A DNA stretch of 64,000 nucleotides from Candidatus Babelota bacterium (GCA_965658655.1 CBFHTA010000002.1:1-64000); one strand, 5' to 3'; counted from the stretch's first letter, positions 157-37,600 are shown. The notes: generated by a model not told the origin, from the sequence alone. Made by a program: numbers and translations.

Positions 157-948
157 ATGAATAAAGTATGGATGTTGGGATTGCTTTTTATTTCAATAGG
201 GCAATTGAATGGAATGGATGCTGGTTTAAATGTGCTACCATTAGAAGGTCTGACAGATAAAGATGTATTGATGTTTGGCTCAAATATGTTTAATGAAGAG
301 GATGTATCTCAGATTTTAACTGCGTTGGCTTCTTTTCAAGAAGTACAGACTCCTCAAGCTGTGCAAAGTAGTGAACAATCTTTGGCTGTAGGGCCAGCAA
401 GTACAGCATCAGATAAAAAGCGTAAAAGAACTCACACAGAGCAAAGATCTTATGAGTGTGAAATTTGTCATAAAGGTTTTAAGAAAAGTAGTTATTTAAA
501 AGGTCATGCACTAGTTCATAAAGATGAAAGACCTTTTGTATGTGAAACTTGTCATAGAGGTTTTAAAGTAAGTGGCGATTTAAGAAAACATAAAAGAGTT
601 CATACAGATGAGAGACCTTTTGTATGTGAAATTTGTGATAAAGGTTTTAAACGAAGTGGCGAGTTAAGAAGGCATAAAAGAATTCATTCAGGGGAAAGAC
701 CTTATAAGTGTGAAATTTGTGATAAAGGTTTTAAAGTAAGTGACGATTTAACAACACATATAAGAGTTCATACAGGGGAAAAACCTTTTGTATGTGAAAT
801 TTGTGATAGAGGTTTTGTGACATCTAGTAATTTAACAACACATATAAGAGTTCATACAGGGGAAAAACCTTTTGTATGTGAAATTTGTGATAGAGGTTTT
901 GCGACATCTAGTAATTTAAGCAGACATGAAAAAAGACATGAAAAATAA
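157..948 (+). CDS. Signal-peptide C2H2 (Kruppel-type) zinc-finger protein, 6 fingers
   Basis: [20 protein letters not shown] leader, DKKRKR, six C-x2-C-x3-F-x5-L-x2-H-x3-H repeats with TGEKP/SGERP linkers; SD TAAGGAGGT upstream. Confidence 0.95.
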
Positions 949-969
949 ATAGGTAATAAGGAGGTTATA

Positions 970-1680
970 ATGAATAAAGTATGGATGTTGGGATTACTTT
1001 TTATTTCAATAGGGCAATTGAATGGAATGGATGCTGCTTCAAATGTACCGCCATTAGAAGACATAACAGATGAAGATGTAGCAATGTTTGGTGTGAGTAT
1101 GCCGACGGAAAGTGAAGTAGTGGCATCTCAGGCTTTAATTGCGTTGTCTACTGGTCAAAGAGAGATTTTTCAAGTTGAGCAAAGTAGCGAACAATCTTTG
1201 GCTGTAGGAGCAGTGAGTACAGCATCGGATAAAAAACATGAAAGAGTTCATGCAGAGAAAAGACCTTATAATTGCTCATATTGTGATAGAAGTTTTACGC
1301 AACTTGGTAATTTAAAAATACATGAAAGAATTCATACAGGGGAAAGACCTTATAAGTGTTCAGATTGTGATAAAAGTTTTACTCGAGGTGGTGCTTTAAA
1401 AGAACATGAAAGAATTCATACAGGGGAAAGATCTTATAAGTGCTCATATTGTGATAAAAGTTTTACGCAACTTGGTGGTTTAAAACAGCATAAAAGAGCT
1501 CATGCAGAGAAAAGACCTTATAAGTGTGAAATTTGTCATCAAGGTTTTAACCAAAGTGGTCATTTAACAGCACATATAAGAACTCATACAGGGGAAAAAC
1601 CTTATAAATGTGAAATCTGTGATAGAAGTTTTAAGCAATCCGGTAATTTATCAAGACATAAAAAAGTACATGAAAAATAA
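970..1680 (+). CDS. Signal-peptide C2H2 zinc-finger protein, 5 fingers
   Basis: Same leader; five fingers with TGERP/TGEKP linkers; KKRKR replaced by KKHER; SD TAAGGAGGT. Confidence 0.95.
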   Translation: MNKVWMLGLLFISIGQLNGMDAASNVPPLEDITDEDVAMFGVSMPTESEVVASQALIALSTGQREIFQVEQSSEQSLAVGAVSTASDKKHERVHAEKRPYNCSYCDRSFTQLGNLKIHERIHTGERPYKCSDCDKSFTRGGALKEHERIHTGERSYKCSYCDKSFTQLGGLKQHKRAHAEKRPYKCEICHQGFNQSGHLTAHIRTHTGEKPYKCEICDRSFKQSGNLSRHKKVHEK

Positions 1681-1701
1681 ATAGGTAATAAGGAGGTTAT
1701 A

Positions 1702-2325
1702 ATGAATAAAGTATGGATGTTGGGATTACTTTTTATTTCAATAGGGCAATTGAATGGAATGGAGACTGGTTTAAATATACTACCATTAGAAGGTCTGACA
1801 GATCAAGATGGGGCGATGTTTGGCTTAGATATGTTGAATGAAGAGGATGCATCTCAGATTTTAACTGCGTTGGCTTCTTTTCAAGAAGTAGAGATACCTC
1901 ACGATCAGCAAAGTAGTGAACAATCTTTGGCTGTAGGGCCAGCAAGTACAGCATCGGATAAAAAGCGTAAAAGAACTCACACAGAGGAAAGATCTTATGT
2001 ATGTGGAATTTGTTATCAAGGTTTTAAGCAAGATCGTCATTTAAGAAGCCATGCACTAGTTCATAAAGATGAAAGACCTTTTGTATGTGAAATTTGCCAT
2101 AGAGGTTTTAAAGTAAGTGGCGATTTAAAAAAACATACAGTAGTTCATTCAGATGAAAGACCTTATAAGTGTGAAATCTGTGATCAAGGTTTTAAACGAA
2201 GTAACGATTTAAAAAAACATACAGTAGCTCATACAGATGAAAGACCTTATAAGTGTGAAATCTGTGATAAAAGTTTTAGGTATTCTAGTAATGTATCAAG
2301 ACATAAAAAAGTACATGAAAAATAA
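1702..2325 (+). CDS. Signal-peptide C2H2 zinc-finger protein, 4 fingers
   Basis: Same leader, DKKRKR, four fingers; SD TAAGGAGGT. Confidence 0.95.
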   Translation: MNKVWMLGLLFISIGQLNGMETGLNILPLEGLTDQDGAMFGLDMLNEEDASQILTALASFQEVEIPHDQQSSEQSLAVGPASTASDKKRKRTHTEERSYVCGICYQGFKQDRHLRSHALVHKDERPFVCEICHRGFKVSGDLKKHTVVHSDERPYKCEICDQGFKRSNDLKKHTVAHTDERPYKCEICDKSFRYSSNVSRHKKVHEK

Positions 2326-2346
2326 ATAGGTAATAAGGAGGTTATA

Positions 2347-3237
2347 ATGAATAAAGTATGGATGTTGGGATTATTTTTTATTTCAATAGGGCAATTGAAT
2401 GGAATGGATGCTGCTTCAAATGTACCGCCATTAGAAGACATAACAGATGAAGATGTAGTAATCTGTGGTGTGAGTATCCCGACGGAAAGTGAAGTAGTGG
2501 CATGTCAGGCTTTAATTGCTTTGGGTACTGGTCAAAGAGAGCAACAAGTACAGATTTCTCAAGCTGTGCAAAGTAGTGAACAATCTTTGGCTGCAGGTTC
2601 AGCAAGTAGAGCCTCGGATAAAAAGCGTAAAAGAACTGACACAGAGGAAAGACCTTTTGTATGTGAAATTTGTCATCAAGGTTTTAAGAAAAGTAGTCAT
2701 TTAACAGGCCATGCATTAGTTCATACAGGTGAGAGACCTTTTGTATGTGAAATTTGTGATAAAGGTTTTAAACGAAGTGACGAGTTAAGAAGACATGCAG
2801 TAGTTCATACAGGTGAGAAATCTTTTGTATGTGAAATTTGTGATAAAGGTTTTAAACGAAGTGGCGAGTTAAGAAGGCATAAAAGAATTCACACAGGGGA
2901 AAGACCTTATAAGTGTGAAATTTGTCATCAAGGTTTTATGCAAAATTGTAATTTAACAGCACATAAAAGAATTCATTCAGGGGAAAGACCTTATAGGTGT
3001 GAAATTTGTCATAAAAGTTTTACGCAACTTGGTGGTTTCAAAGCACATAAAAGAATTCATGCAGGGGAAAGACCTTATAGGTGTGAAATTTGTCATCAAG
3101 GTTTTAAGCAAAGTAGTCATTTAAAAGGACATAAAAGAATTCACACAGGGGAAAGACCTTATAAGTGTCAAATTTGTCATCAAGGTTTTAAGCAAAGTAG
3201 TCATTTAAAAGACCATGAAAAAACACACGAAAAATAA
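2347..3237 (+). CDS. Signal-peptide C2H2 zinc-finger protein, 7 fingers
   Basis: Same leader, DKKRKR, seven fingers including an RSDELRR helix; SD TAAGGAGGT. Confidence 0.95.
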   Translation: MNKVWMLGLFFISIGQLNGMDAASNVPPLEDITDEDVVICGVSIPTESEVVACQALIALGTGQREQQVQISQAVQSSEQSLAAGSASRASDKKRKRTDTEERPFVCEICHQGFKKSSHLTGHALVHTGERPFVCEICDKGFKRSDELRRHAVVHTGEKSFVCEICDKGFKRSGELRRHKRIHTGERPYKCEICHQGFMQNCNLTAHKRIHSGERPYRCEICHKSFTQLGGFKAHKRIHAGERPYRCEICHQGFKQSSHLKGHKRIHTGERPYKCQICHQGFKQSSHLKDHEKTHEK

Positions 3238-3258
3238 ATAGGTAATAAGAAGGTTACA

Positions 3259-3897
3259 ATGAATAAAGTATGGATGTTGGGATTATTTTTTATTTCAATA
3301 GGGCAATTGAATGGAATGGAGACTGGTTTAAATGTACCGCCATTAGAAGACATAACAGATGAAGATGTAGTAATGTGTGGTGTGAGTATCCCGACGGAAA
3401 GTGAAGTAGTGGCATGTCAGGCTTTAATTGCTTTGGGTACTGGTCAAAGAGAGCAACAAGTACAGATTCCTCAAGCTGTGCAAAGTAGTAAACAATCTTT
3501 GGCTGCAGGTTCAGCAAGTAGAGCCTCGGATAAAAAGCGTAAAAGAACTCACACAGGGGAAAGACCTTATAAGTGTGAAATTTGTCATAAAGATTTTACG
3601 GAAAAGAGTAGTTTAAAAACACATATAAGAGTTCATACAGGGGAAAAACCTTTTGTATGTGAAATTTGTCATAAAGGTTTTACGCAAAAGTGTAGTTTAA
3701 AAAAACATACAGTAGTTCATACAGGGGAAAGACTTTATAAGTGTGAAATTTGTCATAAAGGTTTTAAGCAAAGTAGTTATCTAAAAGGACATACAGTAGT
3801 TCATACAGGGGGAAGACCTTATGAGTGTGAAATTTGTCATCAAAGTTTTAGGCATTCTAGTAATTTATCAAGACATAAAAAAACACACGAAAAATAA
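3259..3897 (+). CDS. Signal-peptide C2H2 zinc-finger protein, 4 fingers
   Basis: Same leader, DKKRKR, four fingers; SD weakened to TAAGAAGGT. Confidence 0.95.
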   Translation: MNKVWMLGLFFISIGQLNGMETGLNVPPLEDITDEDVVMCGVSIPTESEVVACQALIALGTGQREQQVQIPQAVQSSKQSLAAGSASRASDKKRKRTHTGERPYKCEICHKDFTEKSSLKTHIRVHTGEKPFVCEICHKGFTQKCSLKKHTVVHTGERLYKCEICHKGFKQSSYLKGHTVVHTGGRPYECEICHQSFRHSSNLSRHKKTHEK

Positions 3898-3941
3898 ATA
3901 GGTAATAAGAAGGTTACAATGAATAAAGTATGGATACTGTT

Positions 3942-6662
3942 TTATAGTAAACCATAGTCTTTGCAACGACGATGAACAGAAGAGCGGTTAACGCCTAAGA
4001 ATTCTGCAATTCTATTTTGATTTTTAAATTTGTTCCAAAGTAGTGCCATTATCTGTCCATCTTTAAGAGCATGCTTACCCATTTTTGCTGCTTGTGCTAA
4101 TTGTGGGTCGGATATATTAAAGGCAGGATTGAATTTTGTTTTTTCAAAAGCACTTTCGTTTGTTGTTTTTGCCATAATAAGTGTTTCTACTTTGCGTTTG
4201 AGTTCATGCAGGCTTGCTGGCTTCTGTTTGAATATTCTCTTCTTCTCTTGATCTGTAAGGTTAATGACTTTAGCTGTATTGTCTTCTGCAAGCGCTTGAT
4301 CTGCAAATCCTTCTACCAAACTTCCGATTTCTGTCGATTCAAGTGTTACAAGCGAAGGCATAGTTAATGAAGTGCGTTTAAGTTCATTATAGAGAGATTG
4401 GGAGAATGTTCCTTCTTGAACCATAAGCTTTAGATTTTGATTGCTTGTGGCAATAATACGTACGTCTGTTTGTATCTTCTTATTACTTTTAAATACTTTG
4501 TAGAATCCGTATTTAATGCATTCAGCAAGATTTTCTTGAGATTCTAAATCTAAGAAATGAATGTTTTTAATAACCAAAGTGCCTTTTTTGTTTAATTTCT
4601 CTAGAAGAGGTTGATTTGTGTTTGAGCTGAAGAGGTTATTAATACCAAACAGAGAAATAGGTATTTCAGAAGTAGAAACCCGTCCATCAAGCTCAAGAAT
4701 ATGCAAAGTTTCTCGTAAACTAATATGGTGCAAAATCTCTACCGTAGGAGTTAAGTCTTCGCTTGGTAAAGAAAGTAATAAGGCTTTTTTACTTAAAGCA
4801 GACTTGAGAAGCTCTACTTTAAAGTTTACAAACTGTTCTTCGTTGCTTGGAATGAGTTTATTAATTAGTCTGCCAGACTCAGTTGTTTCTAGATAGAGTA
4901 AATAATCCCAATTTGAAGGATCATGAATGGCATCTAAGAGATGCTTAATAGTGTCGGAGATTTCTGGGTGGTGTGCAACAAAAATAGCGCCATTAGCTTC
5001 CGGATGGGGCATGCCAAGTAACACAATCTGTTTGCCTTTTGCGTTACTTACCATTTGAGTTTGTGCAGCTTTGTATGAAGCAATTTGATTAACCATGGTT
5101 TTAAGTTTTTTGGTTAAAGGTTCTTCAGTTTGTGTATTAGGGTTTATTCCTAAAATATCTGTAGCGGCTTTATTGCCAAAGGTGAATCGACGACTTTTGT
5201 AGAAGAATACTCCAATGGTATGATCTTTATTGTTTCTCAAGAAAGAGCGAATGCTCTCTTTATAGCGATTAATTTCTTGATGTTTACTGTAAAGTTCTTC
5301 AATCATCTCTTTCTTTTGCTTGAATAATTCTTGCAGATTTCTGGTTTGAAGTAGGTTGATAACTTTCGATAAATAACTACCAAATACTAGTATTTCATCT
5401 CGTTCTACATTGGTATAAAGGTTGCCGTTTCGAGCACTTTGTTGCACGGTGATATAAGCGATAATCGTATTATTGCTATAAATAGGGAGAAAAATGTCTG
5501 CATTAATTTTTTCTAAAAAAGAGAGTAGGGCTCCCTGGATTTTAGTAGGGTTATGGAAATGATCGTAAGCAAGTTCATCGTAAATGAGGATTTTACGTTC
5601 TTGTAAAAAATGTAGTGTGTTCGGATCTTCATTAAATTTATCGTTATGAATTTCTAAAAATGTTTCAATTGTTGCTTGTTGATAAGGTAAGGTTACAGCA
5701 TCGTTTTTTTGATGATCAGTGCTATGTAGTGATCGGATTGATAAAGACGTGTTTTCCGGAGCTACAGAAAAGGCTTTATGAAAGAAGTGTTGAGTAAGTA
5801 TTTTAACTTCTGTGGTATTAGATGCCTTTCCTAAGTCTTCTAAAACGCTTTTAAAGTCATTAACAAAGTTAAATTTTTGGTCATCGTGAACATGCTCGTG
5901 TAGACCAAAAAAACGCAATCCAATAATTCGTTTAATGCAATGGTAAATTGCCATAGATAAAAATATAGCTGAAAAGCTTACCGCGGGAAGACAGTTTGCC
6001 ATGGTGTTTGCAACAAATTTAAATGGGTAAAGTTCCCAGATATTAGCAAGAAGATGAGGAAACAAAAAGAACTGCAGACAGGTTTTCAGTTGTAAACGTA
6101 AAATGGATGGTAGTTGTTTATCACGTAAAGAATGAAAACCTGAGATAATAGTGGTTGGTACTAGAAGGAAGAAAATATAAATAGATTCCCACTCTCGTAC
6201 AGTAAACTCCATAGGTAAAGGATATGCTCCCTTGCATGTTCCTATATATGATAATGCTGCAAAGAAACCAAAACTTATGGCTCCTAACATATAGTGATAA
6301 AATTTAATTTTAAAAGTTCTGCTTTTAAATGTTTCCACAAAAATAAAGAGCGAATGATACATTACAATGTTTATTGCCCATGCAAATCTTTTTATAAAAA
6401 TATTAATGTGTTCATAGGAATCATTAAGGAAAAGTTTTTTTGAAAGAGCAAAGATCCAAGAGAAGTCTTCAAATGTGGCTACTGCAAGTACAATGCAAAG
6501 ATAAATCCAAGACATCGAAATTTGTTTAGTTCGCGCTATATGTGTAAAGAAAAAACCCAATAAAGTTACTTTAAAAACAAAAGCAAGTGTTCTTACAGCA
6601 AGTAGGAATTCGGTGCTTCCTAACGTGTCATACAAAAATATGTAACAAGATTGTAGCGTCAT
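3942..6662 (-). CDS. Membrane-anchored transcriptional regulator: multi-TM N-terminus, GAF/PAS-like middle, degenerate sigma54-activator-type AAA+ domain, Fis-type HTH
   Basis: About 7 hydrophobic segments in the first 250 aa; GTLVIKNI...DVRIIATSNQNLKLMVQEGTFSQSLY aligns to the NtrC-family GTLFLDEI...DVRIIAATNRDL..GxFRxDLYYRL pattern; C-terminal NQNRIAEFLGVNRSSVHRR. Confidence 0.8.
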   Translation of the reverse strand: MTLQSCYIFLYDTLGSTEFLLAVRTLAFVFKVTLLGFFFTHIARTKQISMSWIYLCIVLAVATFEDFSWIFALSKKLFLNDSYEHINIFIKRFAWAINIVMYHSLFIFVETFKSRTFKIKFYHYMLGAISFGFFAALSYIGTCKGAYPLPMEFTVREWESIYIFFLLVPTTIISGFHSLRDKQLPSILRLQLKTCLQFFLFPHLLANIWELYPFKFVANTMANCLPAVSFSAIFLSMAIYHCIKRIIGLRFFGLHEHVHDDQKFNFVNDFKSVLEDLGKASNTTEVKILTQHFFHKAFSVAPENTSLSIRSLHSTDHQKNDAVTLPYQQATIETFLEIHNDKFNEDPNTLHFLQERKILIYDELAYDHFHNPTKIQGALLSFLEKINADIFLPIYSNNTIIAYITVQQSARNGNLYTNVERDEILVFGSYLSKVINLLQTRNLQELFKQKKEMIEELYSKHQEINRYKESIRSFLRNNKDHTIGVFFYKSRRFTFGNKAATDILGINPNTQTEEPLTKKLKTMVNQIASYKAAQTQMVSNAKGKQIVLLGMPHPEANGAIFVAHHPEISDTIKHLLDAIHDPSNWDYLLYLETTESGRLINKLIPSNEEQFVNFKVELLKSALSKKALLLSLPSEDLTPTVEILHHISLRETLHILELDGRVSTSEIPISLFGINNLFSSNTNQPLLEKLNKKGTLVIKNIHFLDLESQENLAECIKYGFYKVFKSNKKIQTDVRIIATSNQNLKLMVQEGTFSQSLYNELKRTSLTMPSLVTLESTEIGSLVEGFADQALAEDNTAKVINLTDQEKKRIFKQKPASLHELKRKVETLIMAKTTNESAFEKTKFNPAFNISDPQLAQAAKMGKHALKDGQIMALLWNKFKNQNRIAEFLGVNRSSVHRRCKDYGLL

Positions 6663-12290: not shown

Positions 12291-14429
12291 ATGAATAAAA
12301 ATCGAAAGATCAGTATGGTTCGTAAAATATTATTAGTGACACTATTAGTAAATATAGTGGCAAGTCCACTGCGTGCAATGCAGTCAATGCTACGTCTTGT
12401 TTATGTGGGTGTACGTACGGCTCCACAGAAAGGTATGTTAGGTCAAATTGTTAAAGAGCAATTAATGCATAAAGGTGTGCGCTCTGTAGCTAATGATACT
12501 TTAAAGATTACCCAAGAAACTCCAAAAACGGTACTTTTTGCTGTAGCTCAGAAACAAAAACTTCAAGCAATTGATGGAATTCAAAAACAACCAAGAACTT
12601 TATTAGTTGCTCCAAATAAAAAAAATAAACTGGAATCATATAATACAGATATTGGTGAGAGCCAAATTCCTACTCAAGACGTCTTGAAATCTCTTGTAGA
12701 AAGTAAACATCAAAAAGAACAGTATGAAGATAATAAAAGTACATGGTTTACTTTTATTAAGATAAGTTTAATAAGTTTTTATTTAAATTATAGAGTTAAA
12801 AAAGTATCTGCTTTAGAAGAATCTAAAGAAATGTCAGAGCAAGAGCTTAAACAGATAGAAATGGTTAAAAGTTTAATTAAAAAAGAACGTGTTTCAGCAG
12901 ATGATTCATGTTTAATAAAAGTTATATACGATAATGGAACAAAGGAATTTAGAGAATGTATTATAGATGAATTAGTCACTATAATAGATTTTACTAAAAT
13001 AGAAGAAAATAAAAAATACGGAAATTTGAAAGATATAATTACTCTTGTTGTTGCAAAATTGCCAATAGATAAGCAGATAGGGTTTGTTAGGAGCACTTTA
13101 TTAAAAGAGAATATTTCAAGAGATGAATTACATATAATAAAAAAAATATATGAAAATGGAGTAAGTGAATTTAAAAAAGGTCTTCTTGAAAAATTAGATA
13201 ATGTAATAGATTTTGCTCATTTAGGTAAACATTACTTTCCTTATCTAGAAGAATTAATTATTGATTTTTTTATGGGATTAAATACAGAAAATAAGATAAG
13301 AAATATTGAAAAGATATTTAAAAAAGATAAAGTTTCACAAAGTGATTTATTTCTTATGGAAGAAATTTATAAAAAAGAAAAAAATGTTATAAAAAATTTT
13401 ATAGAAGAGTGCTTTTTTGAAGGTTGTTTTGCAAGTGAAAAAAAACATACACCTACTGATAAGTATTTTCTTAATTATTTTACATCATGTGTGCAAAATA
13501 AAAATTTACCCCAAGACCTTAAGAACTTAACTCATCGATTGAATCGATATTCTGCTGATAATATTAATAACAATAAAATAACTTTTTTCCATGGGCAAGC
13601 ATGGTATTGGAATTTGCAAGCCATAATTGTTAAGAAATTGTATGAATTTAAACATAGAGTAAAAATAGATGGAAATTTTACTTTTTTACGCTTTGTTCAA
13701 GCAGAGATGGGTTTATGTGAAAAGCATCAAAAGAAACTTGTTCAAACAGGGATAAGGGGAACACCAACTTTTTTTTCAGAAGAGCGTTCAAATGTTATTT
13801 TTGTAAATCTTGCTCTTTTTGCAAATGGTCCTGGCTCAAACACTGTTGGGTATGTTTTAAATAATAATGATCAGAGCTTATTGATGAGGCGGAAAAAAGA
13901 TCTATGCCGATTTGTAAAGATTTTTAAAGATTTTGGTTTTGAAAAAGAAATTCAAGAGCTACAAAGAATACAGCCTACTCTTTTAAAAGATCTTACAAAT
14001 TTGCATTTTTCAGCATCTTCCTATGGTAATTTTGTTACTATTGTTATGCCTAAGCAGCTGGCATCTCAAGTTGCTTATCCAGGAAAAACAGCTGGTCCTA
14101 GAATTAAATACAAAAATATGGATGATATTGTTAGCATTGTAGAGAATTTTGAAAGAATGCCCTTTGAGAATGAGTTTTGCATTGTGCTTGGTCCAAATAT
14201 AGTTGATCCAATTGAGGCAAAAAAAACGGGCATTGAAATTAAATCATGGAATACCGCAAACCCAAAGATTATTGTTTTGCGTGATGCATTGATTGATGAA
14301 ATTATTGCGTGGTGTGAGGTGGCTCAAAATCAAACTAAATCTTATGCAGAGCTTGCTGCGTGGGGGCAGCAGATAGTTGATGATGCAAAAAAGAAACTAG
14401 AAGAGGCAAAGTACTTAAGTGATAGGTAA
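12291..14429 (+). CDS. Large hypothetical secreted protein (effector candidate); start may be MVRKILL
   Basis: Signal-like RKILLVTLLVNIVASPLRAM; visibly AT-rich, Lys/Ile-rich helical middle. Confidence 0.75.
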   Translation: MNKNRKISMVRKILLVTLLVNIVASPLRAMQSMLRLVYVGVRTAPQKGMLGQIVKEQLMHKGVRSVANDTLKITQETPKTVLFAVAQKQKLQAIDGIQKQPRTLLVAPNKKNKLESYNTDIGESQIPTQDVLKSLVESKHQKEQYEDNKSTWFTFIKISLISFYLNYRVKKVSALEESKEMSEQELKQIEMVKSLIKKERVSADDSCLIKVIYDNGTKEFRECIIDELVTIIDFTKIEENKKYGNLKDIITLVVAKLPIDKQIGFVRSTLLKENISRDELHIIKKIYENGVSEFKKGLLEKLDNVIDFAHLGKHYFPYLEELIIDFFMGLNTENKIRNIEKIFKKDKVSQSDLFLMEEIYKKEKNVIKNFIEECFFEGCFASEKKHTPTDKYFLNYFTSCVQNKNLPQDLKNLTHRLNRYSADNINNNKITFFHGQAWYWNLQAIIVKKLYEFKHRVKIDGNFTFLRFVQAEMGLCEKHQKKLVQTGIRGTPTFFSEERSNVIFVNLALFANGPGSNTVGYVLNNNDQSLLMRRKKDLCRFVKIFKDFGFEKEIQELQRIQPTLLKDLTNLHFSASSYGNFVTIVMPKQLASQVAYPGKTAGPRIKYKNMDDIVSIVENFERMPFENEFCIVLGPNIVDPIEAKKTGIEIKSWNTANPKIIVLRDALIDEIIAWCEVAQNQTKSYAELAAWGQQIVDDAKKKLEEAKYLSDR

Positions 14430-14454: not shown

Positions 14455-15456
14455 TTAACTTTTTTTGTACCTATGTAAGCTACGAATTCGCGCTCCGGTT
14501 GACAAGTTCAACTCTGGGGCGCGTTTCCATGTGGCATATAAATTCTTTTTTTGCTCGTTGCTATACACAACTTCTTGGGTGCGTTGAAGGCTTTTCTTTT
14601 TAACAGGCTTGCGAATTGCCACCGTCATAGGAGCATCTTTTTTCAAAGGGCTTAAAGAAGCGAACAGATCTCTGTGTATTCTAAAATGTTTTTTAATGTC
14701 GTAACAGAGCGCCAAAATGTTTTTACCAACCAGGCTACTATAAATCTCTGTTTGGTATGGTTGATTATTGTTTACGAGCAATAATACAGAGTAAGCATTA
14801 GAGTGATGAAACTGTGTATATTCATGGGTATATTGAGGATGTAGCGTTGGTTTAGAAAACGTAAACGGTTGTTGAGAGTAAAAGGTGTAGAGCTGTTCTA
14901 TTTTTTCTGCTTTTGGCATAAACAATTTATACTTTTGTGTGTCTTTAGGGATTGCGGTGCCCAGCTGTATAGCAACTTCTACAGGTTTTTTAATCTTGCG
15001 CGTTGCAGCATTAAAAACGAGTCCACCTCTGCCTTGAGTAATAACAATACATTTACTTTTAAGTGAATGGAGGTAATCAAGACCTTCGGCAAGTTTCTGA
15101 GCCGGTGTATTTAAGTGGTTGGTGCTTGGAGAAGAATCTATCCAATCAAAATAGACACAAAGCGGAGTAGTGTTTTTGGCAGGACTATTAGCAGAAAAGA
15201 ATGAATAGGGCACTCTAATTTTATTATTATTGGTGAATGCCTTTAATGTTTTAGCTGCTTCAACATCTTTTTTTGCAGATTCAGCTGCTGCAGGAACTAC
15301 TACAAAAAAGATATTATGTTTTTTTTGTTCGGGGTCAAAGAGGGTGGAATTCTTTTCTTTTCCTATTATGTGGAAACTATCGGGAAGACGCGCAAGACGT
15401 GCTTGTGCGCTTGCCAGAGATATCAGGGCTATACTTATTACTACTCTTTTTTTCAT
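14455..15456 (-). CDS. Hypothetical secreted protein, possibly degenerate alpha/beta-hydrolase-like
   Basis: Signal MKKRVVISIALISLASAQA; IVITQGRGGLV resembles a nucleophile elbow lacking Ser. Confidence 0.6.
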   Translation of the reverse strand: MKKRVVISIALISLASAQARLARLPDSFHIIGKEKNSTLFDPEQKKHNIFFVVVPAAAESAKKDVEAAKTLKAFTNNNKIRVPYSFFSANSPAKNTTPLCVYFDWIDSSPSTNHLNTPAQKLAEGLDYLHSLKSKCIVITQGRGGLVFNAATRKIKKPVEVAIQLGTAIPKDTQKYKLFMPKAEKIEQLYTFYSQQPFTFSKPTLHPQYTHEYTQFHHSNAYSVLLLVNNNQPYQTEIYSSLVGKNILALCYDIKKHFRIHRDLFASLSPLKKDAPMTVAIRKPVKKKSLQRTQEVVYSNEQKKNLYATWKRAPELNLSTGARIRSLHRYKKS

Positions 15457-28188: not shown

Positions 28189-31100
28189 TTACACCAATCC
28201 TCTTACACCGCTGTCAGTAGCGATGAGAAGCTTTCCAGTACTACCTGCATTTGATATGCCATGTAGGTAAGAAGCCTCTGAGGTTGAACCTGGGTTATAT
28301 ACTAGATGTGCGTGTGGGCTTAGGTTGTTCCACCATTTTGCATGTGATGCGTATGGTTGACCGTAGAGGTTAGCTGTGTTTCCGTCTGATACTACACGGA
28401 ATTTTTGAACAATACGACGAGAACCATCAGAGTAGAAGCCCATTATTGGAGGCTCTTGATCGAAGAGTGTAGGTTCAGTTGCTGTTCCATCGAAAGCGTT
28501 AAACACAGTTGGGTTGTAAGCCCAGTTACCCCATGTTGTACCGTTATTTAGTGCGTCACCGCGTCCTTCAGTCAGAGGTCTTCTGCTCATTTGGTGAATG
28601 TCTACTGCAAAGTAAACGCCTGATCTCTCTTTATGTTCGGCAATACGATTGAACCAGAATGTTGAAGGGTTACGTGTATAAGCAGGTTCATCGAAGGTAA
28701 GCTGGTATGTGTTGTCTGTATTAGGTTCGCTCATTTGTACCCAACCACAAATACCTTGTGCATTGTCTGGATTGCTACCAACATTGTAGTCATTGGTACC
28801 AATAGAGCAAGTTGTGGTCCAAATTCCGTCGTTTGTTAGCATCATGAGTTGTTCTTGTTCACCTATTTGACCAGTACGAGCCTGTGCACCTGAAGTTTGA
28901 GCATCTGAGGTTGTTACGGTTATTACAAAGTCATAGATACGTGCTGGAAGTGTAGAACCTTGGGCGCTACCTGCTATGCTACCTTGTTTTCCTGAAGATG
29001 CAGTTACACAGAAATCTGTGTTTAGAGCGGCAGCAGTACTTTGACGTGTTAAGCGGAAGATTCTGTCTGGTGTTGCTTCATCGTATCCGTGAGTAAGAAT
29101 GTATACTGCACCTCCGCGAGAAACAATCTTAGAAGGAACACCGCTTATACGAGTAAGTTTCTGCCATGTTCGTGCATTTGCTGCTGCTACATCACCAGTA
29201 GTACGGAATGGAGGCATGTTTAGATCGTGTACATCACGAGTATCGAAACCTGCACCAAGATTTGCTGCAGCCCATACATATAATTCACCATTTCCTGGGT
29301 TATTAACATCTTCTACCCCAGCAAAGAAATAACCAGTGTTTGTACTTGAGGCTCTTTCGTTCCACCCAGAGTAAGCAAGGCAACAAACCACTTTTCCAGC
29401 AGCAACTGTTGTAGTTTTTAATGTTCCTGTTGTGCTGTAATCGAAAGCAATGTTGTGTACTACACCTGTATTGGTAGAGAGGAGTTTTCCTGCACTATGT
29501 GCAACACTTGTTCCAGAAGAACCAACTGCAGATCCTGTTATAGCAAAAGATACTTTACCTGCATCGTTACCAAACATAGTAAGACGAGTTGGAGTTGTTG
29601 CACCCCACCCAGTTGTTGAAGAGTTCAAGTCGCAAATTGCAGTACAGTTACCAGCAAGGTGAGACGATGAGTTAAGATTATAGATCAATCCGGTGGAGTC
29701 TTGTGCTGGAGCAGTAGTATTTGCATCTTTTGAATCAGAAGCCCAAGAAGTTAAACGTAAAAGTTTCTTAGTTGTGTCTACACCCCAGATACGAGAAGAA
29801 ATAGCGTCTACTGCAAAGAAGCTAATTCGCCCGTTGTTTGCATTTGTAGCACTATAACCAAGATTTGCAGGTGCAACTCTTTGCCATTCTGTCCAATGAT
29901 CAATTTGACCATGTCTGTTGAAGCATGCTTGTGAGTGCCAAATACCAGGAGAATCTGTATTAGATGCAGCAGCGTCAATAGAACAATAAACAGCATCGCC
30001 ATCTACCCACATTGCGCTTGGCTTCGTTGTTGCGGCACATGGAAGTGGACCGTTACCAACGCGAACTGCGGCGGTGTTTGTTAAGAAAAGGTCACCAGCA
30101 TTTGTTGCAACAGTTGAGTAGTCTCCTGTTGTTACATCTGCAAATTTACCGTTATTAGCTGCTGTAGCATTTCCAACTACAAGAGGTGTAGCCCATACGC
30201 GGTTAGAAACAGCAGAAGAACCAGCAATTGCCGTTGAGCCACCGTGTCCGTTACCACCGTTTACAATTAAGTATGCAAAACGAGTTCCGTCTGAGGGTCC
30301 AGTTGAAGTGTGCATTACTTTAAGGTTGTGGTAAGTAAGAGACGCACGAGTCCCTGCAGTACTAGAACCGCCACCACCAACACCAACAATGTGAGAACCT
30401 GTTAGAACAAGAGATCCACCTGCTTCTGTGTCACCGCTTTGATCTAAGTTTGTTAGAGTGTTGTTGTCAGGATCTACTTGGAATATTTGCACACCCCAAC
30501 CACCTGTGTGGTCGTATTCTACGTTTGAAGTTGTGTAGTTTACACCAACATAAAGACGTTTTAATGTTTGGCTATAGTACATAGCTGGAGCGCGGCCGTT
30601 TTCTCCGAGTTGAACATTTGTATCAAGCGCTGACCCAAAATTTAGAGAGTAGGTTTGGCTAAGGTCGCTTGAGACAACAGAAGATGGAGCTTTAGCTCTT
30701 TGAGTCATTGTGTAATCGTCTTCTCCACATTCAACCATTACAACACCGTCACCTGCATGATACCCAAAGTTTCCACGATTTGCATCGTGACCAGCATCAT
30801 CTTTAACAGCTACAAAAGCATACGTTTTATTGTTAGTTGTTCCATAGGCGTTACCTGCAACCACTGTCATTGTATAGCAACATGCAGCTGTTGAATTAGC
30901 ATCTGTAAGTTTCAAAGCGTTAGGGTTAGAAGGAATTCCGGTTGTTGTAATAACCATCAATGGGTGGCCTACATTGCTTGTTGCAAGCGAATCGTTGTTG
31001 CCTTGAGAACTCAAGAAGAAGATTTTTGCTTTAGAGAAATTCTCTGGACTAGTAATGTCGTTTGCTACAGCTACGGCTTGGATACTGCTATTTCTGATAG

Positions 31101-31425
31101 CCATTAAACCAGCAGCTGTGCTTGATTCGGCGATACCTGTGTAGGTTGGAACCGTGTCGAGCATTGCGTGAGAACCCGCAGAATTAGCTGTAACTGTGTT
31201 GCTTGCAAAACCAAGAGCGTCTTCACTTGCTTGTTTGCCTAGACCAAATACCATAGTTCCAGATGGTCTATGGAACGCTGCAGCTTGTGCAACCTTTTGG
31301 AACGTTTCTCCTGAAGAGGCACCGCCATCTGTGTTAGGCACTACTTTTGTTACGGCATGTAAACGCGGGGCGCATACAGCAGAGCAAAGTAGTAGTAATA
31401 AACTATATTTCATGAATTGTTTCAT
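28189..31425 (-). CDS. Large secreted beta-rich (propeller/adhesin-like) surface protein
   Basis: Signal ...APRLHA; rich in G/S/T/A/N; recurrent short beta-strand patterns. Confidence 0.75.
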   Translation of the reverse strand: MKQFMKYSLLLLLCSAVCAPRLHAVTKVVPNTDGGASSGETFQKVAQAAAFHRPSGTMVFGLGKQASEDALGFASNTVTANSAGSHAMLDTVPTYTGIAESSTAAGLMAIRNSSIQAVAVANDITSPENFSKAKIFFLSSQGNNDSLATSNVGHPLMVITTTGIPSNPNALKLTDANSTAACCYTMTVVAGNAYGTTNNKTYAFVAVKDDAGHDANRGNFGYHAGDGVVMVECGEDDYTMTQRAKAPSSVVSSDLSQTYSLNFGSALDTNVQLGENGRAPAMYYSQTLKRLYVGVNYTTSNVEYDHTGGWGVQIFQVDPDNNTLTNLDQSGDTEAGGSLVLTGSHIVGVGGGGSSTAGTRASLTYHNLKVMHTSTGPSDGTRFAYLIVNGGNGHGGSTAIAGSSAVSNRVWATPLVVGNATAANNGKFADVTTGDYSTVATNAGDLFLTNTAAVRVGNGPLPCAATTKPSAMWVDGDAVYCSIDAAASNTDSPGIWHSQACFNRHGQIDHWTEWQRVAPANLGYSATNANNGRISFFAVDAISSRIWGVDTTKKLLRLTSWASDSKDANTTAPAQDSTGLIYNLNSSSHLAGNCTAICDLNSSTTGWGATTPTRLTMFGNDAGKVSFAITGSAVGSSGTSVAHSAGKLLSTNTGVVHNIAFDYSTTGTLKTTTVAAGKVVCCLAYSGWNERASSTNTGYFFAGVEDVNNPGNGELYVWAAANLGAGFDTRDVHDLNMPPFRTTGDVAAANARTWQKLTRISGVPSKIVSRGGAVYILTHGYDEATPDRIFRLTRQSTAAALNTDFCVTASSGKQGSIAGSAQGSTLPARIYDFVITVTTSDAQTSGAQARTGQIGEQEQLMMLTNDGIWTTTCSIGTNDYNVGSNPDNAQGICGWVQMSEPNTDNTYQLTFDEPAYTRNPSTFWFNRIAEHKERSGVYFAVDIHQMSRRPLTEGRGDALNNGTTWGNWAYNPTVFNAFDGTATEPTLFDQEPPIMGFYSDGSRRIVQKFRVVSDGNTANLYGQPYASHAKWWNNLSPHAHLVYNPGSTSEASYLHGISNAGSTGKLLIATDSGVRGLV

Positions 31426-31450: not shown

Positions 31451-32782
31451 TTAGAAATCCATTGCTACATTAACACCGGCTGTACCACCACCTACATCAG
31501 TTGCAAAGATATATTTACCTTTGACTGGTCTGCTGTAGAAAACTGAGAAGCATGGATTCCAGCGACGGCCTTCTTCTGCCATGTCGTACTCAAGAGTAAC
31601 GGTTAGAGCGTGTTGATCCCAGCCTTTGAGCATATCATCAGCATTTACATGATCAGGTTCAAATTTTACGGTATCAACTGGAGTCAACATCGATTTACCT
31701 TGATGAGCGTAGTTGTAACCAAGCATTAATGAGATACCTTTAAAGATGTGATCTGCTTTAAGATACCCACCTGCATGCCAAATGTTACCCATATCGTACT
31801 CAGCATCACCTTTTTGAAGTTTTAACCAACCACTTTGGTGTTTGTTAGTTTGCATACGAAGGTTAAGTGTTTTGTCTAGGAAGAAGAGTCCACCAACGTG
31901 AGCACCGAGTGTTATCCACTCATAGAACCCAAGACCAAGGTCAAACTCAGCACCAATTCCTGTATGCTTTTCATAACCAAGTGCTAACTCAAACGCTTTA
32001 TTTTGGTCACGTTTTTTTGCTGTTGGAAGAGAAACGCCAAGTTTAATAGTGGTGTCTAAGAAATCTAATCCTTCTATATCGTCGTGATTGCAAGTCCAAC
32101 CACCAGAAAGCATTAGGTCACCAACGCCAGTTGTAGAGGCATCACCAATATTCAAGTCATAAGGAGAAGATGCGAGTGTGGTTGCCAGGTTACTTCCACT
32201 TACAGCTATTTCTTCAGCTAGAAAACCAACAAGACGAATTAGTGCTCCACGACCAAGCATGCCCAATCGCGTAAAATCTGCAGTGCTTGTAATGTTTTTG
32301 TGACTTATATTAGATATTTTAAGTTTTTTAATAGGTAGATTTGCGCTTAAGAAGAAGCCATTACAGAAGTTTTGGGTGTAAGAAAGATTTGCTTCAAACA
32401 AGCTGTATTTACCATCAAACTTGATACCAATATCTGCATTTGGATGTATACCTGCACCTAAGGTCAAAGTAAAAAGATCTCCAAGCGCACCAAGTATGCC
32501 ACTTGGGTCTCCGACAGCATTTACTCCTAGTGTACCGAGATGGTCAATGCCATAAATGCTAAGGGCATTTACTTTATCTTTGTTGAAGTCGTACCCTTTT
32601 TTGGCACGTCCACCCATGAGTTCGAGCTCAAATGTTGCCATACAGTTTCGTTCGTAGCGAGTTTCGTGAGCAGTTTGCCCAGATCTGTGGCGAAATTTAG
32701 TATTCATTTGCTTTGCGAATACTGTCATTGGAGCGAGAAGCAATGCGACGAAAAGGGCGCTATGCGAGAAGAGTTTCTTCAT
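31451..32782 (-). CDS. Putative outer-membrane beta-barrel protein
   Basis: Signal ...TVFA; alternating hydrophobic strands; C-terminal Phe; similar layout to 52561-54111. Confidence 0.7.
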   Translation of the reverse strand: MKKLFSHSALFVALLLAPMTVFAKQMNTKFRHRSGQTAHETRYERNCMATFELELMGGRAKKGYDFNKDKVNALSIYGIDHLGTLGVNAVGDPSGILGALGDLFTLTLGAGIHPNADIGIKFDGKYSLFEANLSYTQNFCNGFFLSANLPIKKLKISNISHKNITSTADFTRLGMLGRGALIRLVGFLAEEIAVSGSNLATTLASSPYDLNIGDASTTGVGDLMLSGGWTCNHDDIEGLDFLDTTIKLGVSLPTAKKRDQNKAFELALGYEKHTGIGAEFDLGLGFYEWITLGAHVGGLFFLDKTLNLRMQTNKHQSGWLKLQKGDAEYDMGNIWHAGGYLKADHIFKGISLMLGYNYAHQGKSMLTPVDTVKFEPDHVNADDMLKGWDQHALTVTLEYDMAEEGRRWNPCFSVFYSRPVKGKYIFATDVGGGTAGVNVAMDF

Positions 32783-34641: not shown

Positions 34642-37600
34642 CTAAGATATAAATGCCTTAATGAAGTTAGTTACTTTATGACCAATTGATTTTACTGTTT
34701 CCCATAGATTAGTGAACCAGTTTTCTGTGTTTTGGGTTGTTATAGTTTCACTTGTTGATTGGTCTGAGTCTGTAGCACTAATTTTGTTACGTCTTGTTAA
34801 CGGCCTTTTTTGTTGTTGGTAATTAACAGGGCGATCAACAGGTACAAATTTTGATGATGTCGACCTTTTTTCGTCTCTATCGGTAACAGAACTTATTACA
34901 ATTGGAGTTTTAGGTTTTCGTAGCCACGATTTTATATCGCCAACAGGTGAAGTAAATCCTGTAAATCTTTCACCAATAGTTTTGCTTGAAGGCAATCCCA
35001 CTCGTGTTCCCAACGATTTGTTTCTTGGGGGTATAGGTGGTGCAAAGGTACTTGATGGTATAGCTGCAGGTACGGTTTGAGCAATGTTTTTCATTGTGGG
35101 TTTCTGTTCTTGTTTATTGTTTATAATACTATGATTTTGACGATTGTTGTCTGCATTTTCCTTTATTTGATCGTTATTATTTTTTGAATCGGTATCTTTT
35201 TGTATGTCTTCTTCTTTGATACTTCGTGGTGTAGAAGCAACTTCATCTTCTGTTCCTGTGTCTACAGGTGTAACAGTAGAACCGTTTTCGTCATCGCCAC
35301 CTCTTTCTGTCTCCTCTGAACTATCTGTATGAATAGGTCTTGGAAAACGAGGCATTGGATCTGTTAGTATATCTACTGTATCAGTATTGTCAGTATCAGT
35401 ATTGTCAGTATTAGTATTGTCAGTATTAGTATTGTCAGTATTAGTATTGTCAGTATTAGTATTGTCAGTATTAGTAGACATATTATGCGTCACTGTTACT
35501 AATGGTCTTTCTTTTGGGGTAACGGGTGGAACAACTCTTGGTGATTTTATCACTCTTCTTGGGGGGGTATAGGGGGCAATTCTTCGTTTGCTTCCAAAAA
35601 GCTCTTCGAAATATTGTATTAATTTTCCAACTCTTCCTCGACTAGGTTTCTCTATTCTTCTTAGAGGAATACGAGGAATACGTGGACAAGGGACTCCTCC
35701 TCTTTTGTCAACAACATTTGGTTTAACTTTTTTTCTGTCCCCAAAACGAAGACCAACCTTTGAAGGTTGCGCCACTCTTCTTGTATCAACATGTGGACGA
35801 CCGATTGTAGCAATATCCGGGTTAACTGGACGATTAAGACCATTTTTAAATTCTTCAACTCTTCCTCTTAGAGGAACACGTGGACGACCGACTCCTCCTC
35901 TTTTGGGAACAACATTTGGGTTAACTTTTTTTCTGTCCCTAAAACGACGACCAAACTTTGTCGGTTGCGCCGCTCTTCTTGTAGCAGCAACATCTGGGAC
36001 AACTCTTTCTGCGCCTCTAGAGAAAGGATTACTCAAAAAGTTTCTAAATTGTTCCCACATTCCTTGACTAGGTTGTTCTATGTCTCTTGGTCCAGTAGAT
36101 GGACGACCGTTTTGTTCGCTTATTGGTTGAGAAGCTTTTTTTGTACGTTTTTTTCTTTTTTTGACTTTATTCCAGTAGTTTCTGAATTTATTCATAGGGA
36201 ATTTCTTTATAGGCTTTTTAAAGTTTTTTGATGGTTCTGAAGTGCCTGTTTGTGATTCACTAGTCTTAGCTACTTTTTCTGCTTGTATCCTTCTTTTGGG
36301 AAAAATATGTGGAGTGTCGTTTGTTGGTATTTTTTTTACTTGTGTCGGTCTGGGGTTACTCTGTTTTATGCCTCCAGAAAGCCTTTCAAGGAGATTTGTT
36401 AATGCTGTAACGTTACCCTGTTCTATCTCTTCAGAAGCTTTTTTTGTACGTTTTTTTCTTTTTTTGAAGTTATTCCAGTAGTTTCTGAATTTCTTTATAG
36501 TGAATTTCTTTATAGGCTTTTTAAAGTTTTTTGATGGTTCTGAAGTGCCTGTTTGTGATTCACTAGTCTTAGCTCCTTTTCCTGCTTGTATCCTTCTTTT
36601 GGGAAAAATATGTGGAGTGTCGTTTGTTGGTATTTTTTTTACTTGTGTCGGTCTGGGGTTACTCTGTTTTATGCCTCCAGAAAGCCTTTCAAAGAAGTTT
36701 TTTAATGTTTTAACGTTACCTTGTTGTATCTCACTAATTTCAGCTACTTGGCCTGGTTGTACTGCTCTTCTTGGAGCAATATGTGGAATTTTGTCTAGTC
36801 GTATTTTTTCTTTCAGATTACGTACTTTTTGTGTTCGGTTATTATTATTAAACCATATATTTTTAAGCTCAGCAGCCTCGGCTTCAAGTAATCGAGTACC
36901 ATTATTTTTTGCATCTCGCCCAACTGATTTTCGTACTGCCGGTTGTCGCGCAGGATGAACAGGCAATGGGTTTAGTGGTTTTATTGGATCCGTAAGTGTT
37001 TTTCGTGGAAGTTGTTCAAGAATGCTTCTACGATTCTTCAGTTGTTGTATGATTCTTTTTGCAGCTTGGCGTGTTTTTGGGTGTACGCTCGCGGCACCAG
37101 TTGCTGCAAAACCTAATAATTTTACAAGTTCATCTTGGCGATCGGTAGTAAATTCTTTTATTCGTTCCAACGCAGAAGGGTTATTCTCTGTAGTTAGCAC
37201 TTTGCTGGGTTGGTCTTTATGCAGTACCAATGCTTTTGATTGGTTAGTAGCGGGTAATAGTGCTCTTCTGTTGTGTTGTTGTGTATAAAATGTTTGTAAC
37301 ATTTTTTCAAGCTCTGGTGCTAATGCTTGTGCAGCTTCTTGTGGAGTTTTTTGTCCTCCAGGGTTGAATATATTTGTTTCTAATATTTTATCTAGAAGTT
37401 TTTTTAAATCTTTTCTGTTAACAGTAATTCTTTGTGTTGGTCCTGTTTCTTTATTCTTTTGTTTAATAGGAACAAGTCCTGTTTCTTTATCTGTGTATGG
37501 TACAATTGCACTTGAACGTTGGTTTGTTGTTTGTTCAAAATAGTCCGCTAATTTATCCGCTATTTCAGCAGTGGTGGTTTGTGCTCTGTTGTATTGAGTA

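Follow-up and report, generated by a model that had tools for sequence, protein, structure and literature searches.

A native bacterial array of C2H2 zinc-finger genes, variable at base-contact positions, as a candidate family of exported DNA-reading effectors in a Candidatus Babelota genome

What use would a bacterium have for a row of classical C2H2 zinc-finger genes? This question is raised by the beginning of a 64,000-nt stretch of DNA from a Candidatus Babelota bacterium (GCA_965658655.1, CBFHTA010000002.1:1-64000; hereafter the window), which is the first 64 kb of the 239,840-bp contig C2 of the genome that we label G000. A first-pass annotation of the window had proposed that its fingers are functional DNA readers, with recognition helices that vary on a conserved scaffold and follow the canonical zinc-finger code, that each paralog likely has a different target, and that base-contacting sites may be under diversifying selection. 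We find that the array is native and bacterial, its genes co-oriented and linked by Shine-Dalgarno (SD) spacers, and that the excess of amino-acid change at the base-contact positions of its fingers is solid and replicated. From the sequence features described below, we consider it fairly probable that the products are Sec-exported, nucleus-directed DNA-binding effectors that work like transcription activator-like (TAL) effectors.

The window opens inside the array, with the 3' end of a paralog severed by the contig start (g0, 3-134), which retains the basic patch and a lone last finger (56-134; helix HSSNLNK); this and all array features named below in the window are on the + strand. A 22-nt spacer with the SD sequence AAGGAGG (135-156) leads to gA (157-948; 263 aa, six fingers), in which a leader (aa 1-19) and an acidic linker reaching to about aa 84 are followed by KKRKR, and whose helices include RSGELRR in finger 3 (F3), TSSNLSR and VSGDLRK. 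The next spacer, of 21 nt (949-969), reads ATAGGTAATAAGGAGGTTATA and precedes gB (970-1680; 236 aa), with a basic patch weakened to KKHER and five fingers that carry, from F1 on, QLGNLKI, RGGALKE, QLGGLKQ, QSGHLTA and QSGNLSR. Behind a 21-nt SD spacer (1681-1701) lies gC (1702-2325; 207 aa), with the four helices QDRHLRS, VSGDLKK, RSNDLKK and YSSNVSR, and behind a further one (2326-2346) gD (2347-3237; 296 aa), with the seven helices KSSHLTG, RSDELRR, RSGELRR, QNCNLTA, QLGGFKA, QSSHLKG and QSSHLKD. The last complete gene, gE (3259-3897; 212 aa; EKSSLKT, QKCSLKK, QSSYLKG, HSSNLSR), follows a 21-nt spacer with the variant AAGAAGG (3238-3258). Beyond it, a final spacer (3898-3918) and a dead stub of the next unit occupy 3898-3957; the stub matches the leader over its initial 17 nt (3919-3935), then diverges and runs into a stop after 12 codons. 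This stub is the 3' edge of the duplicated unit.

A seventh paralog with five fingers, gZ, lies at the end of contig C1 (C1:520259-520963); downstream of it come the same spacer and 17 nt from the start of a further copy. Because gZ, spacer and copy start stand at the very end of C1, the array crosses the C1-C2 assembly gap and comprises at least seven genes. The spacer ATAGGTAATAAGGAGGTTATA is identical at three junctions, the remaining junctions differing by one or two bases, and AAGGAGG is placed 7 nt ahead of the ATG in the 21-nt spacers. All array genes have open frames and no introns, and each shows an 84-nt period in Tandem Repeats Finder. Read together, these features describe a polycistronic array in the order gZ, assembly gap, g0 and gA to gE, apparently derived from tandem duplication.

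The array holds 32 fingers in total, 27 in the window (26 in 450-3890 and one at 56-134), as the first-pass annotation had counted, and five in gZ. Every finger conforms to the ligand pattern C-x2-C-x12-H-x3-H. In all 32, the two Cys, the core Phe and the two His are retained, and an aromatic Y or F stands two residues before the first Cys, while Leu at +4 is found in 30 of 32 fingers and CEIC in 25. Among 25 linkers, the TGE(K/R)P type prevails (T in 18, G in 19, E in 23, R in 18 and K in the other 7, P in 22), with an exact TGE[KR]P in 12. Thus the scaffold is conserved as the earlier reading had it, and all ten helices quoted there are located in the translation at the places given. In the five complete genes of the window, Pfam zf-C2H2 matches range from E = 4.6e-20 to 1.6e-39 and zf-H2C2_2 matches from 7.2e-20 to 3.9e-48, with scores of 71-132 bits for PF00096 (gathering cut-off 25.2) and 71-160 bits for PF13465 (cut-off 40). 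A phmmer comparison with DNA-bound poly-finger structures returned ZFP568 (E = 6e-82), Aart (5.6e-52), PRDM9 (1.5e-47), CTCF (5.3e-44) and Zif268 (about 1e-22), the same five being the best relatives of gD in the PDB. An AlphaFold2 (AF2) model of gC predicts four beta-beta-alpha fingers at a predicted local distance difference test score (pLDDT) of about 90, with residues 1-93 below 50 except for a short helix at 47-58. A look-up of protein clusters retrieved generic animal ZNF clusters only, which are uninformative on the donor. Judged by these profiles and by the predicted fold, the fingers of the array are intact classical C2H2 units.

On this scaffold, variation is concentrated where classical fingers contact bases. 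Across the 32 fingers, Shannon entropy peaks at helix positions +6 (3.00 bits), +3 (2.69) and -1 (2.56), with 1.93 bits at +2; the mean over -1/2/3/6 (hereafter the contact positions), a set fixed in advance, is 2.55 bits vs 1.24 over the other 20 non-ligand positions, and only 4 of 20,475 sets of four positions equal or exceed it. The excess of variation at these positions, which had been proposed as a check on the DNA-reading interpretation, is thus present, and the codon models described below agree with it. Distinct heptads account for 30 of the 32 helices, so that the paralogs differ in their helix sets as suggested and every gene has its own helix series. At +6, the residue is often G, A or T. 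In an independent array from another genus (G007), 12 of 3,876 sets did as well as the contact positions in the same entropy test.

DIVERSIFYING selection was examined in three ways, with Nei-Gojobori (NG86) counts on finger pairs, with a codon model on a tree, and by tree-free pairwise maximum likelihood (ML). NG86 counts over 16 independent nearest-neighbour finger pairs gave dN = 0.275 and dS = 0.125 at contact sites (ratio 2.2), compared with ratios of 1.37 at other helix sites and 0.85 in the rest; without one distant pair the three ratios were 2.84, 1.30 and 1.01. Since the contact-site differences are too few (29.3 non-synonymous vs 2.7 synonymous in 15 pairs), these counts alone cannot establish a dN/dS ratio (omega) above 1. 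The codon model, fitted to the 32 fingers (23 codons each) on a tree from IQ-TREE, yielded omega = 2.36 at contact positions vs 0.99 elsewhere (twice the log-likelihood difference, 2dlnL, 24.4), with site-wise values of 3.38 at +6, 2.82 at -1, 1.96 at +3 and 1.63 at +2; as a control, among the 3,060 ways to choose four variable positions, 84 gave a test statistic as large. The length of the tree (10.7 substitutions per codon) makes the absolute omegas of this model suspect, and the assumption of a single tree is violated by recombination among fingers. The spacer and the first 60 nt of the genes are about 98% identical between copies, with dS of up to 0.3 elsewhere in the N-terminal region, and gA F3 and gD F3 differ at 1 of 69 nt within otherwise diverged genes; these homogenized junctions and near-identical fingers suggest recombination or gene conversion at junctions and between fingers.

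The tree-free estimates used independent pairs with a p-distance of at most 0.25 on a full grid with a transition/transversion ratio (kappa) of 2.6. For G000 (15 of 16 pairs), omega was 2.40 at contact positions (about 1.28-3.95) vs 1.13 in the rest; the likelihood-ratio test (LRT) rejected equal omegas at p = 0.0035 and omega = 1 at p = 0.017. The replicate was the six-gene, 41-finger array of G007, for which 15 of 20 pairs were used after two identical and three distant pairs had been dropped and one finger had been left unpaired. It gave omega = 2.11 at contact positions vs 0.78 in the rest (equal omegas, p = 3.8e-5; omega = 1, p = 0.025). All but the fold-determining residues evolve at about the neutral rate. 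Of the earlier suggestion of diversifying selection, the elevated rate at contact positions stands and recurs in a second genus; positive selection in the strict sense is likely, with modest support for omega above 1 and with the 84 equally extreme position sets to be set against it.

The claim that the helices follow the canonical code holds literally for a minority of fingers. In 6 of 32, the residues at -1/3/6 equal those of a characterized module: RSDELRR and RSGELRR (the latter twice) are of the GCG type, QSGNLSR and QFGNLSR of the GAA type, and TSSNLSR of the GAT type. The reference helices invoked by the first-pass annotation are genuine: RSDELTR of Zif268 finger 1 appears in a PDB molecule name, RSDELQR of Sp1 finger 2 is paired with gcg in a table of PMC4219604, and Table 2 of PMC3607563 assigns QSGNLAR to GAA, TSGNLVR to GAT and QSGHLQR to GGA. 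Given that no more than 6 of 32 fingers match such modules, we regard adherence to the canonical code as a reasonable expectation rather than a demonstrated fact.

Ahead of the fingers, the array proteins share a three-part N-terminal region. The signal-peptide-like leader consists of a basic n-region, a hydrophobic core of 10-12 residues and, at SIG or LNG, small side chains. It is followed by an acidic, predictedly disordered stretch of 65-70 aa with 9-12 D+E vs 0-3 K+R, and by the basic patch SDKKRKR between linker and fingers, with KKRKR present in five of the six full genes and in g0. Leaders were called by a crude hydrophobic-window rule that is blind to the distinction between cleaved signals and signal anchors. 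All nine finger open reading frames (ORFs) of at least 150 aa in G000 passed this rule, against a base rate of 306 of 675 ORFs, as did all 17 finger ORFs at eight loci in seven related genomes. Leader sequences differ among genera while their signal-peptide character is kept; most of the related finger ORFs have acidic linkers, and some occur in tandem (six genes in G007, three in G050). In the Pfam search, no nuclease or other effector domain was attached to the fingers. A pattern search for relatives of the leader-linker module produced 85 matches in genome contigs, none of which was confirmed, and a protein search with residues 1-100 recovered, among 123 candidates, only two of the window's own paralogs; the sole exception is a 38%-identical N-terminus in a genome of the same genus, G001.

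The leaders of three other finger genes on C1 are unlike those of the array and have a textbook look, MNKKLIVIIFALFLTNTSIVQSA being one. Two of these genes encode adjacent 205-aa proteins (C1:478655-479867, - strand) with signal peptides, four to five divergent C2H2 fingers and a C-terminal KRKK, and the third gene, at about C1:465685 (- strand), encodes a protein with a leader and one or two fingers. With these divergent genes, G000 has another and older branch built on the same putative effector principle. At the G007 locus (L102, G007:C28:2546-8053), the six tandem finger genes have overlapping stop and start codons, and their linkers contain repeated acidic-aromatic motifs (…EEAALWFTEE…, …EELDLWLTEE…) that resemble the motifs of acidic activation domains.

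The genome that carries the array is 928,713 bp long in four contigs, with a GC content of 0.37 and 95% completeness. It encodes four tandem TLC ATP/ADP translocases (C1:489882-495556), two secretins, one GspE-type ATPase and signal peptidase I; no match to VirB4, a marker of type IV secretion systems (T4SS), or to FHIPEP (SctV/FlhA), a marker of type III secretion systems (T3SS), was found in this 95%-complete assembly. The sequencing runs with this DNA are labelled marine plankton metagenome. The 261 genomes of the phylum all fall into one order and measure 0.5-1.9 Mb. From gene content and from this single-order structure, the organism is probably a Dependentiae-like energy parasite, an assignment that leans on what we take to be the structure of the phylum in GTDB and that conflicts with the LepA protein, for which one 70% relative is labelled 'uncultured Pseudomonadota bacterium' among otherwise 51-58% matches from many phyla. 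All TM6 genomes are reported to have two copies of gspD (PMC4776705), and a cultured Dependentiae parasite of a marine flagellate is reported to have signal peptides on 44% of its coding sequences and 78% of its ankyrin proteins (PMC6561590); the latter source also describes a relative that replicates inside a remodelled mitochondrion. PF00096 matches occur in 81 of the 261 phylum genomes (59 over the curated cut-off) and in 49 of 145 genera; in the family of G000, 13 of 15 genomes have them, compared with one in a control set of 14 genomes. Other families of the phylum have much larger finger arrays, each scoring more than 31 matches (G073:C1:234186-241557, and several contigs of G139).

These observations can be assembled into a mechanism, in which we infer export, host entry, nuclear import, DNA binding and an effect on transcription from sequence. 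The bacterium, an energy parasite with a 0.93-Mb genome whose host is most likely a protist of the marine plankton, would export the proteins unfolded via Sec. The predicted Sec leaders would imply that the fingers are exportable in unfolded form and acquire zinc only in the target cell. Release from the bacterial cell would proceed through a type II-like secretin pathway or in vesicles, and the fingers would fold in the reducing, zinc-containing cytosol of the host. The KKRKR patch, a predicted nuclear localization signal (NLS), would carry the protein into the nucleus, where each paralog would use helix positions -1/2/3/6 to read a different site of 12-21 bp; the acidic linker may serve as an activation domain. 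The family would expand by unequal crossing-over in the homogenized spacer-leader junction and diversify at the base-contacting residues. A broader version is more tentative, and we would put it somewhat short of probable. In it, an entire phylum of protist parasites (probably Dependentiae/TM6) has turned the eukaryotic C2H2 finger into a programmable reader of host genomes that is exported via Sec, its paralog operons supplying tailored transcription factors, with an acidic activation region at the N-terminus and an NLS, whose specificity residues are caught in an arms race with host promoters.

Several results weigh against the proposal of exported, nucleus-directed DNA readers. The codon usage of the array is atypical for its genome, with a GC content at third codon positions (GC3) of 0.15-0.19 vs 0.27-0.34 in housekeeping genes and AGA serving for 79% of Arg residues vs 17%. 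Similarly, TGT encodes 95% of Cys in the array vs 58% in the housekeeping genes of the window, and local ORFans are intermediate between the two classes; this bias may reflect foreign origin, a single founder for all fingers, or low expression. No RNA run carrying the array DNA was listed. The leader rule that all finger ORFs pass also flags 45% of all ORFs, and the outer membrane and any host membrane would remain as barriers after Sec export. The basic patch is weakened in gB and not obvious in several relatives. In 26 of the 32 helices the residues at -1/3/6 match no characterized module, and the entropy test was weak in G050 (700 of 3,876 sets) and in the mixed loci of relatives (180 of 3,876). 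Regarding selection, omega above 1 is only modestly significant at the contact sites (p = 0.017 and 0.025), and with kappa forced to 1 the test against omega = 1 lost significance (p = 0.16 in G000, 0.19 in G007). High omegas were also obtained in the tree model at x1 (2.82), +10 (2.82) and -2 (2.35), and the N-terminal linker is about neutral (0.93); because these sites and the linker also evolve near the neutral rate, part of the signal is general relaxation.

Alternative explanations differ in how much of the proposal they retain. One keeps export and has the fingers bind host RNA or proteins, or act outside the nucleus, instead of recognizing specific double-stranded DNA. C2H2 fingers in general do bind RNA and proteins, gA matches zf-C2H2_jaz, a dsRNA-binding type, at 9.2e-27, and the many helices outside the known DNA modules, often with G, A or T at +6, would suit such a role. 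The TGE(K/R)P-type linkers (T18, G19, E23, K/R25 and P22 of 25) point the other way, as do the best structural relatives, all of which are DNA-bound arrays, the peaks of variation at exactly the three primary base-contact positions, and the classical basic patch ahead of the fingers; we hold this alternative to be unlikely, if the most serious of its kind. Somewhat less likely is that exported DNA binders are aimed at organelle genomes, co-infecting giant viruses or rival symbionts, in defence or competition. A fast turnover of specificity residues would suit an arms race with any fast-evolving DNA, and a relative is described as replicating in a remodelled mitochondrion (PMC6561590); KKRKR and the acidic linker, in contrast, fit the architecture of a nuclear transcription factor, and the Pfam search attached no nuclease or other effector domain to the fingers.

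It is also conceivable, and in our estimation improbable, that the bacterium itself is the site of action, with the N-terminal hydrophobic segment as a membrane anchor or without function, and with fingers that control bacterial genes or have a task in the periplasm or at the surface. Export is predicted here by a rule that cannot separate cleaved signals from signal anchors, and bacterial C2H2-like regulators of the Ros/MucR type exist (cited in PMC12491435). Yet K3 ahead of the hydrophobic core would orient an anchored protein so that the fingers face away from the cytoplasm and the chromosome, no Ros/MucR match was found in Pfam, the order of leader, linker and fingers persists from genus to genus although the leader sequence varies, and a basic patch with an acidic linker has no obvious bacterial role. 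Least credible of all, and very unlikely, is an artefact or dead DNA, either DNA of a eukaryotic host wrongly assembled into the bin or a recent insert in decay. The position of the array at two contig ends and its departure from the housekeeping codon norm are what such an origin would have in its favour; the SD spacers, the intron-free open frames, the contiguous bacterial genes on both sides, the retention of every zinc ligand in all 32 fingers and the C2H2 matches in 81 of 261 related genomes oppose it.

Compared with known systems, the finger-level pattern is textbook C2H2 behaviour, and what is unusual is the bacterial encoder and the packaging. Eukaryotic Krüppel-type C2H2 factors (ZFP568/KRAB-ZNFs, PRDM9, CTCF, Zif268/EGR1, Sp1) resemble the array in family, ligand spacing, core, linkers and the 84-nt repeat, and some array helices share their contact residues with Zif268 F1, Sp1 F2 and the engineered GAA and GAT modules. 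As in the array, fast-evolving animal ZNF arrays are reported to be hypervariable at -1/3/6 with omega above 1. Unlike these factors, the array is bacterial, is organized as an SD-spaced operon, and encodes proteins of 207-296 aa with a leader and without a KRAB, SCAN, BTB or SET partner. With TAL effectors (TALEs; Xanthomonas, RipTALs, Burkholderia Bats), the proposed likeness is one of principle: a secreted protein with an NLS, an acidic region and modular repeats, whose target is determined by a small number of hypervariable residues in each repeat, and several paralogs per genome with different targets. The two are not homologous, and 28-aa zinc fingers reading about 3 bp contrast with 34-aa repeats reading 1 bp; moreover, the leader of the array proteins is Sec-like, their acidic region is N-terminal, an FHIPEP match is absent, and their function is a proposal. 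Membership in the TAL effectors themselves was rejected, with no TALE match in Pfam, a repeat of 28 aa (84 nt) vs 33-35 aa, and no FHIPEP as T3SS marker. Ros/MucR regulators were likewise rejected, ROS_MUCR not being among the Pfam matches at E up to 0.01 and tandem classical fingers being present instead.

In architecture, the nearest precedent is the fungal protein MoHTR2. MoHTR1 and MoHTR2 of Magnaporthe oryzae, the rice blast fungus, are reported to combine an N-terminal signal peptide, C2H2 and an NLS, and to be delivered to the host nucleus, where they reprogram transcription (PMC12488382, PMC11555045); unlike the array, they come from a fungal producer, and MoHTR2 has one finger domain in 110 aa, compared with arrays of 4-7, and no tandem operon. 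The repeat proteins of Dependentiae/TM6, among them the 98 ankyrin proteins of Chromulinavorax destructans, share gene content (a small genome, ATP/ADP translocases and two secretins) and the placing of a Sec-type leader on a eukaryote-type repeat, in contrast with the array in that ankyrin repeats bind protein (PMC6561590, PMC4776705). The main texts of PMC4776705 and PMC6561590 make no mention of zinc fingers, the word 'zinc' occurring 0 times in the former and once, for a transporter, in the latter. In a literature search that covered main texts and few subscription journals, no paper was found that connects arrays of C2H2 fingers with secreted effectors of bacteria or with Dependentiae/Babela.

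Should nuclear entry and DNA binding prove true, the array would add to TALEs a second class of modular DNA readers among bacterial effectors, one that uses the transcription-factor domain most common in the host itself. The takeover of marine protists by uncultured Dependentiae-like parasites would become open to direct study, and the predicted binding sites could help to identify hosts from their promoters. If the phylum-wide reading were also true, the TAL-effector strategy would have been invented independently a second time, with a natural library of bacterial zinc-finger DNA readers as its product. With 32 fingers in one operon and replicate arrays in other genera, the system offers a compact natural experiment on the diversification of finger specificity under selection.

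The surroundings of the array are those of an ordinary bacterial chromosome, with bacterial genes adjoining it on both the C1 and the C2 side and with physical linkage on C2 to the housekeeping genes thrS, argS, lepA, gyrA, gltX, ftsK and murF. A TTGACT-17-TAAATT site lies 34 nt upstream of the first gene, gZ. Inside the array, no promoter-like or terminator-like site was found on the + strand; three promoter-like sites were found in all, none of them on the + strand, compared with 14.5 expected over both strands. A 168-nt gap separates gZ from a divergent gene for an Xer-type tyrosine recombinase just upstream (C1:519173-520090, - strand; positions 415-1332 of locus L003), for which a role in rearranging the array is possible.

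At its other end, the array stops 45 nt short of a convergent gene resembling sigma-54 activators (3942-6662, - strand). The encoded 906-aa protein has a hydrophobic N-terminal third and a helix-turn-helix-like tail, and it keeps only the C-terminal half of the sigma-54 interaction domain (profile positions 88-167 of 168); it is possibly an odd, degenerate enhancer-binding protein. Further into the window, seven large ORFs of 333-1710 aa (12291-14429, 14455-15456, 28189-31425, 31451-32782, 34642-39774, 52561-54111 and 57799-59172) matched neither Pfam (E 1e-4) nor NCBIfam (E 1e-5). The GC content, 0.37 overall, falls to 0.285 at 12-14 kb and rises to 0.43 at 28-32 kb.

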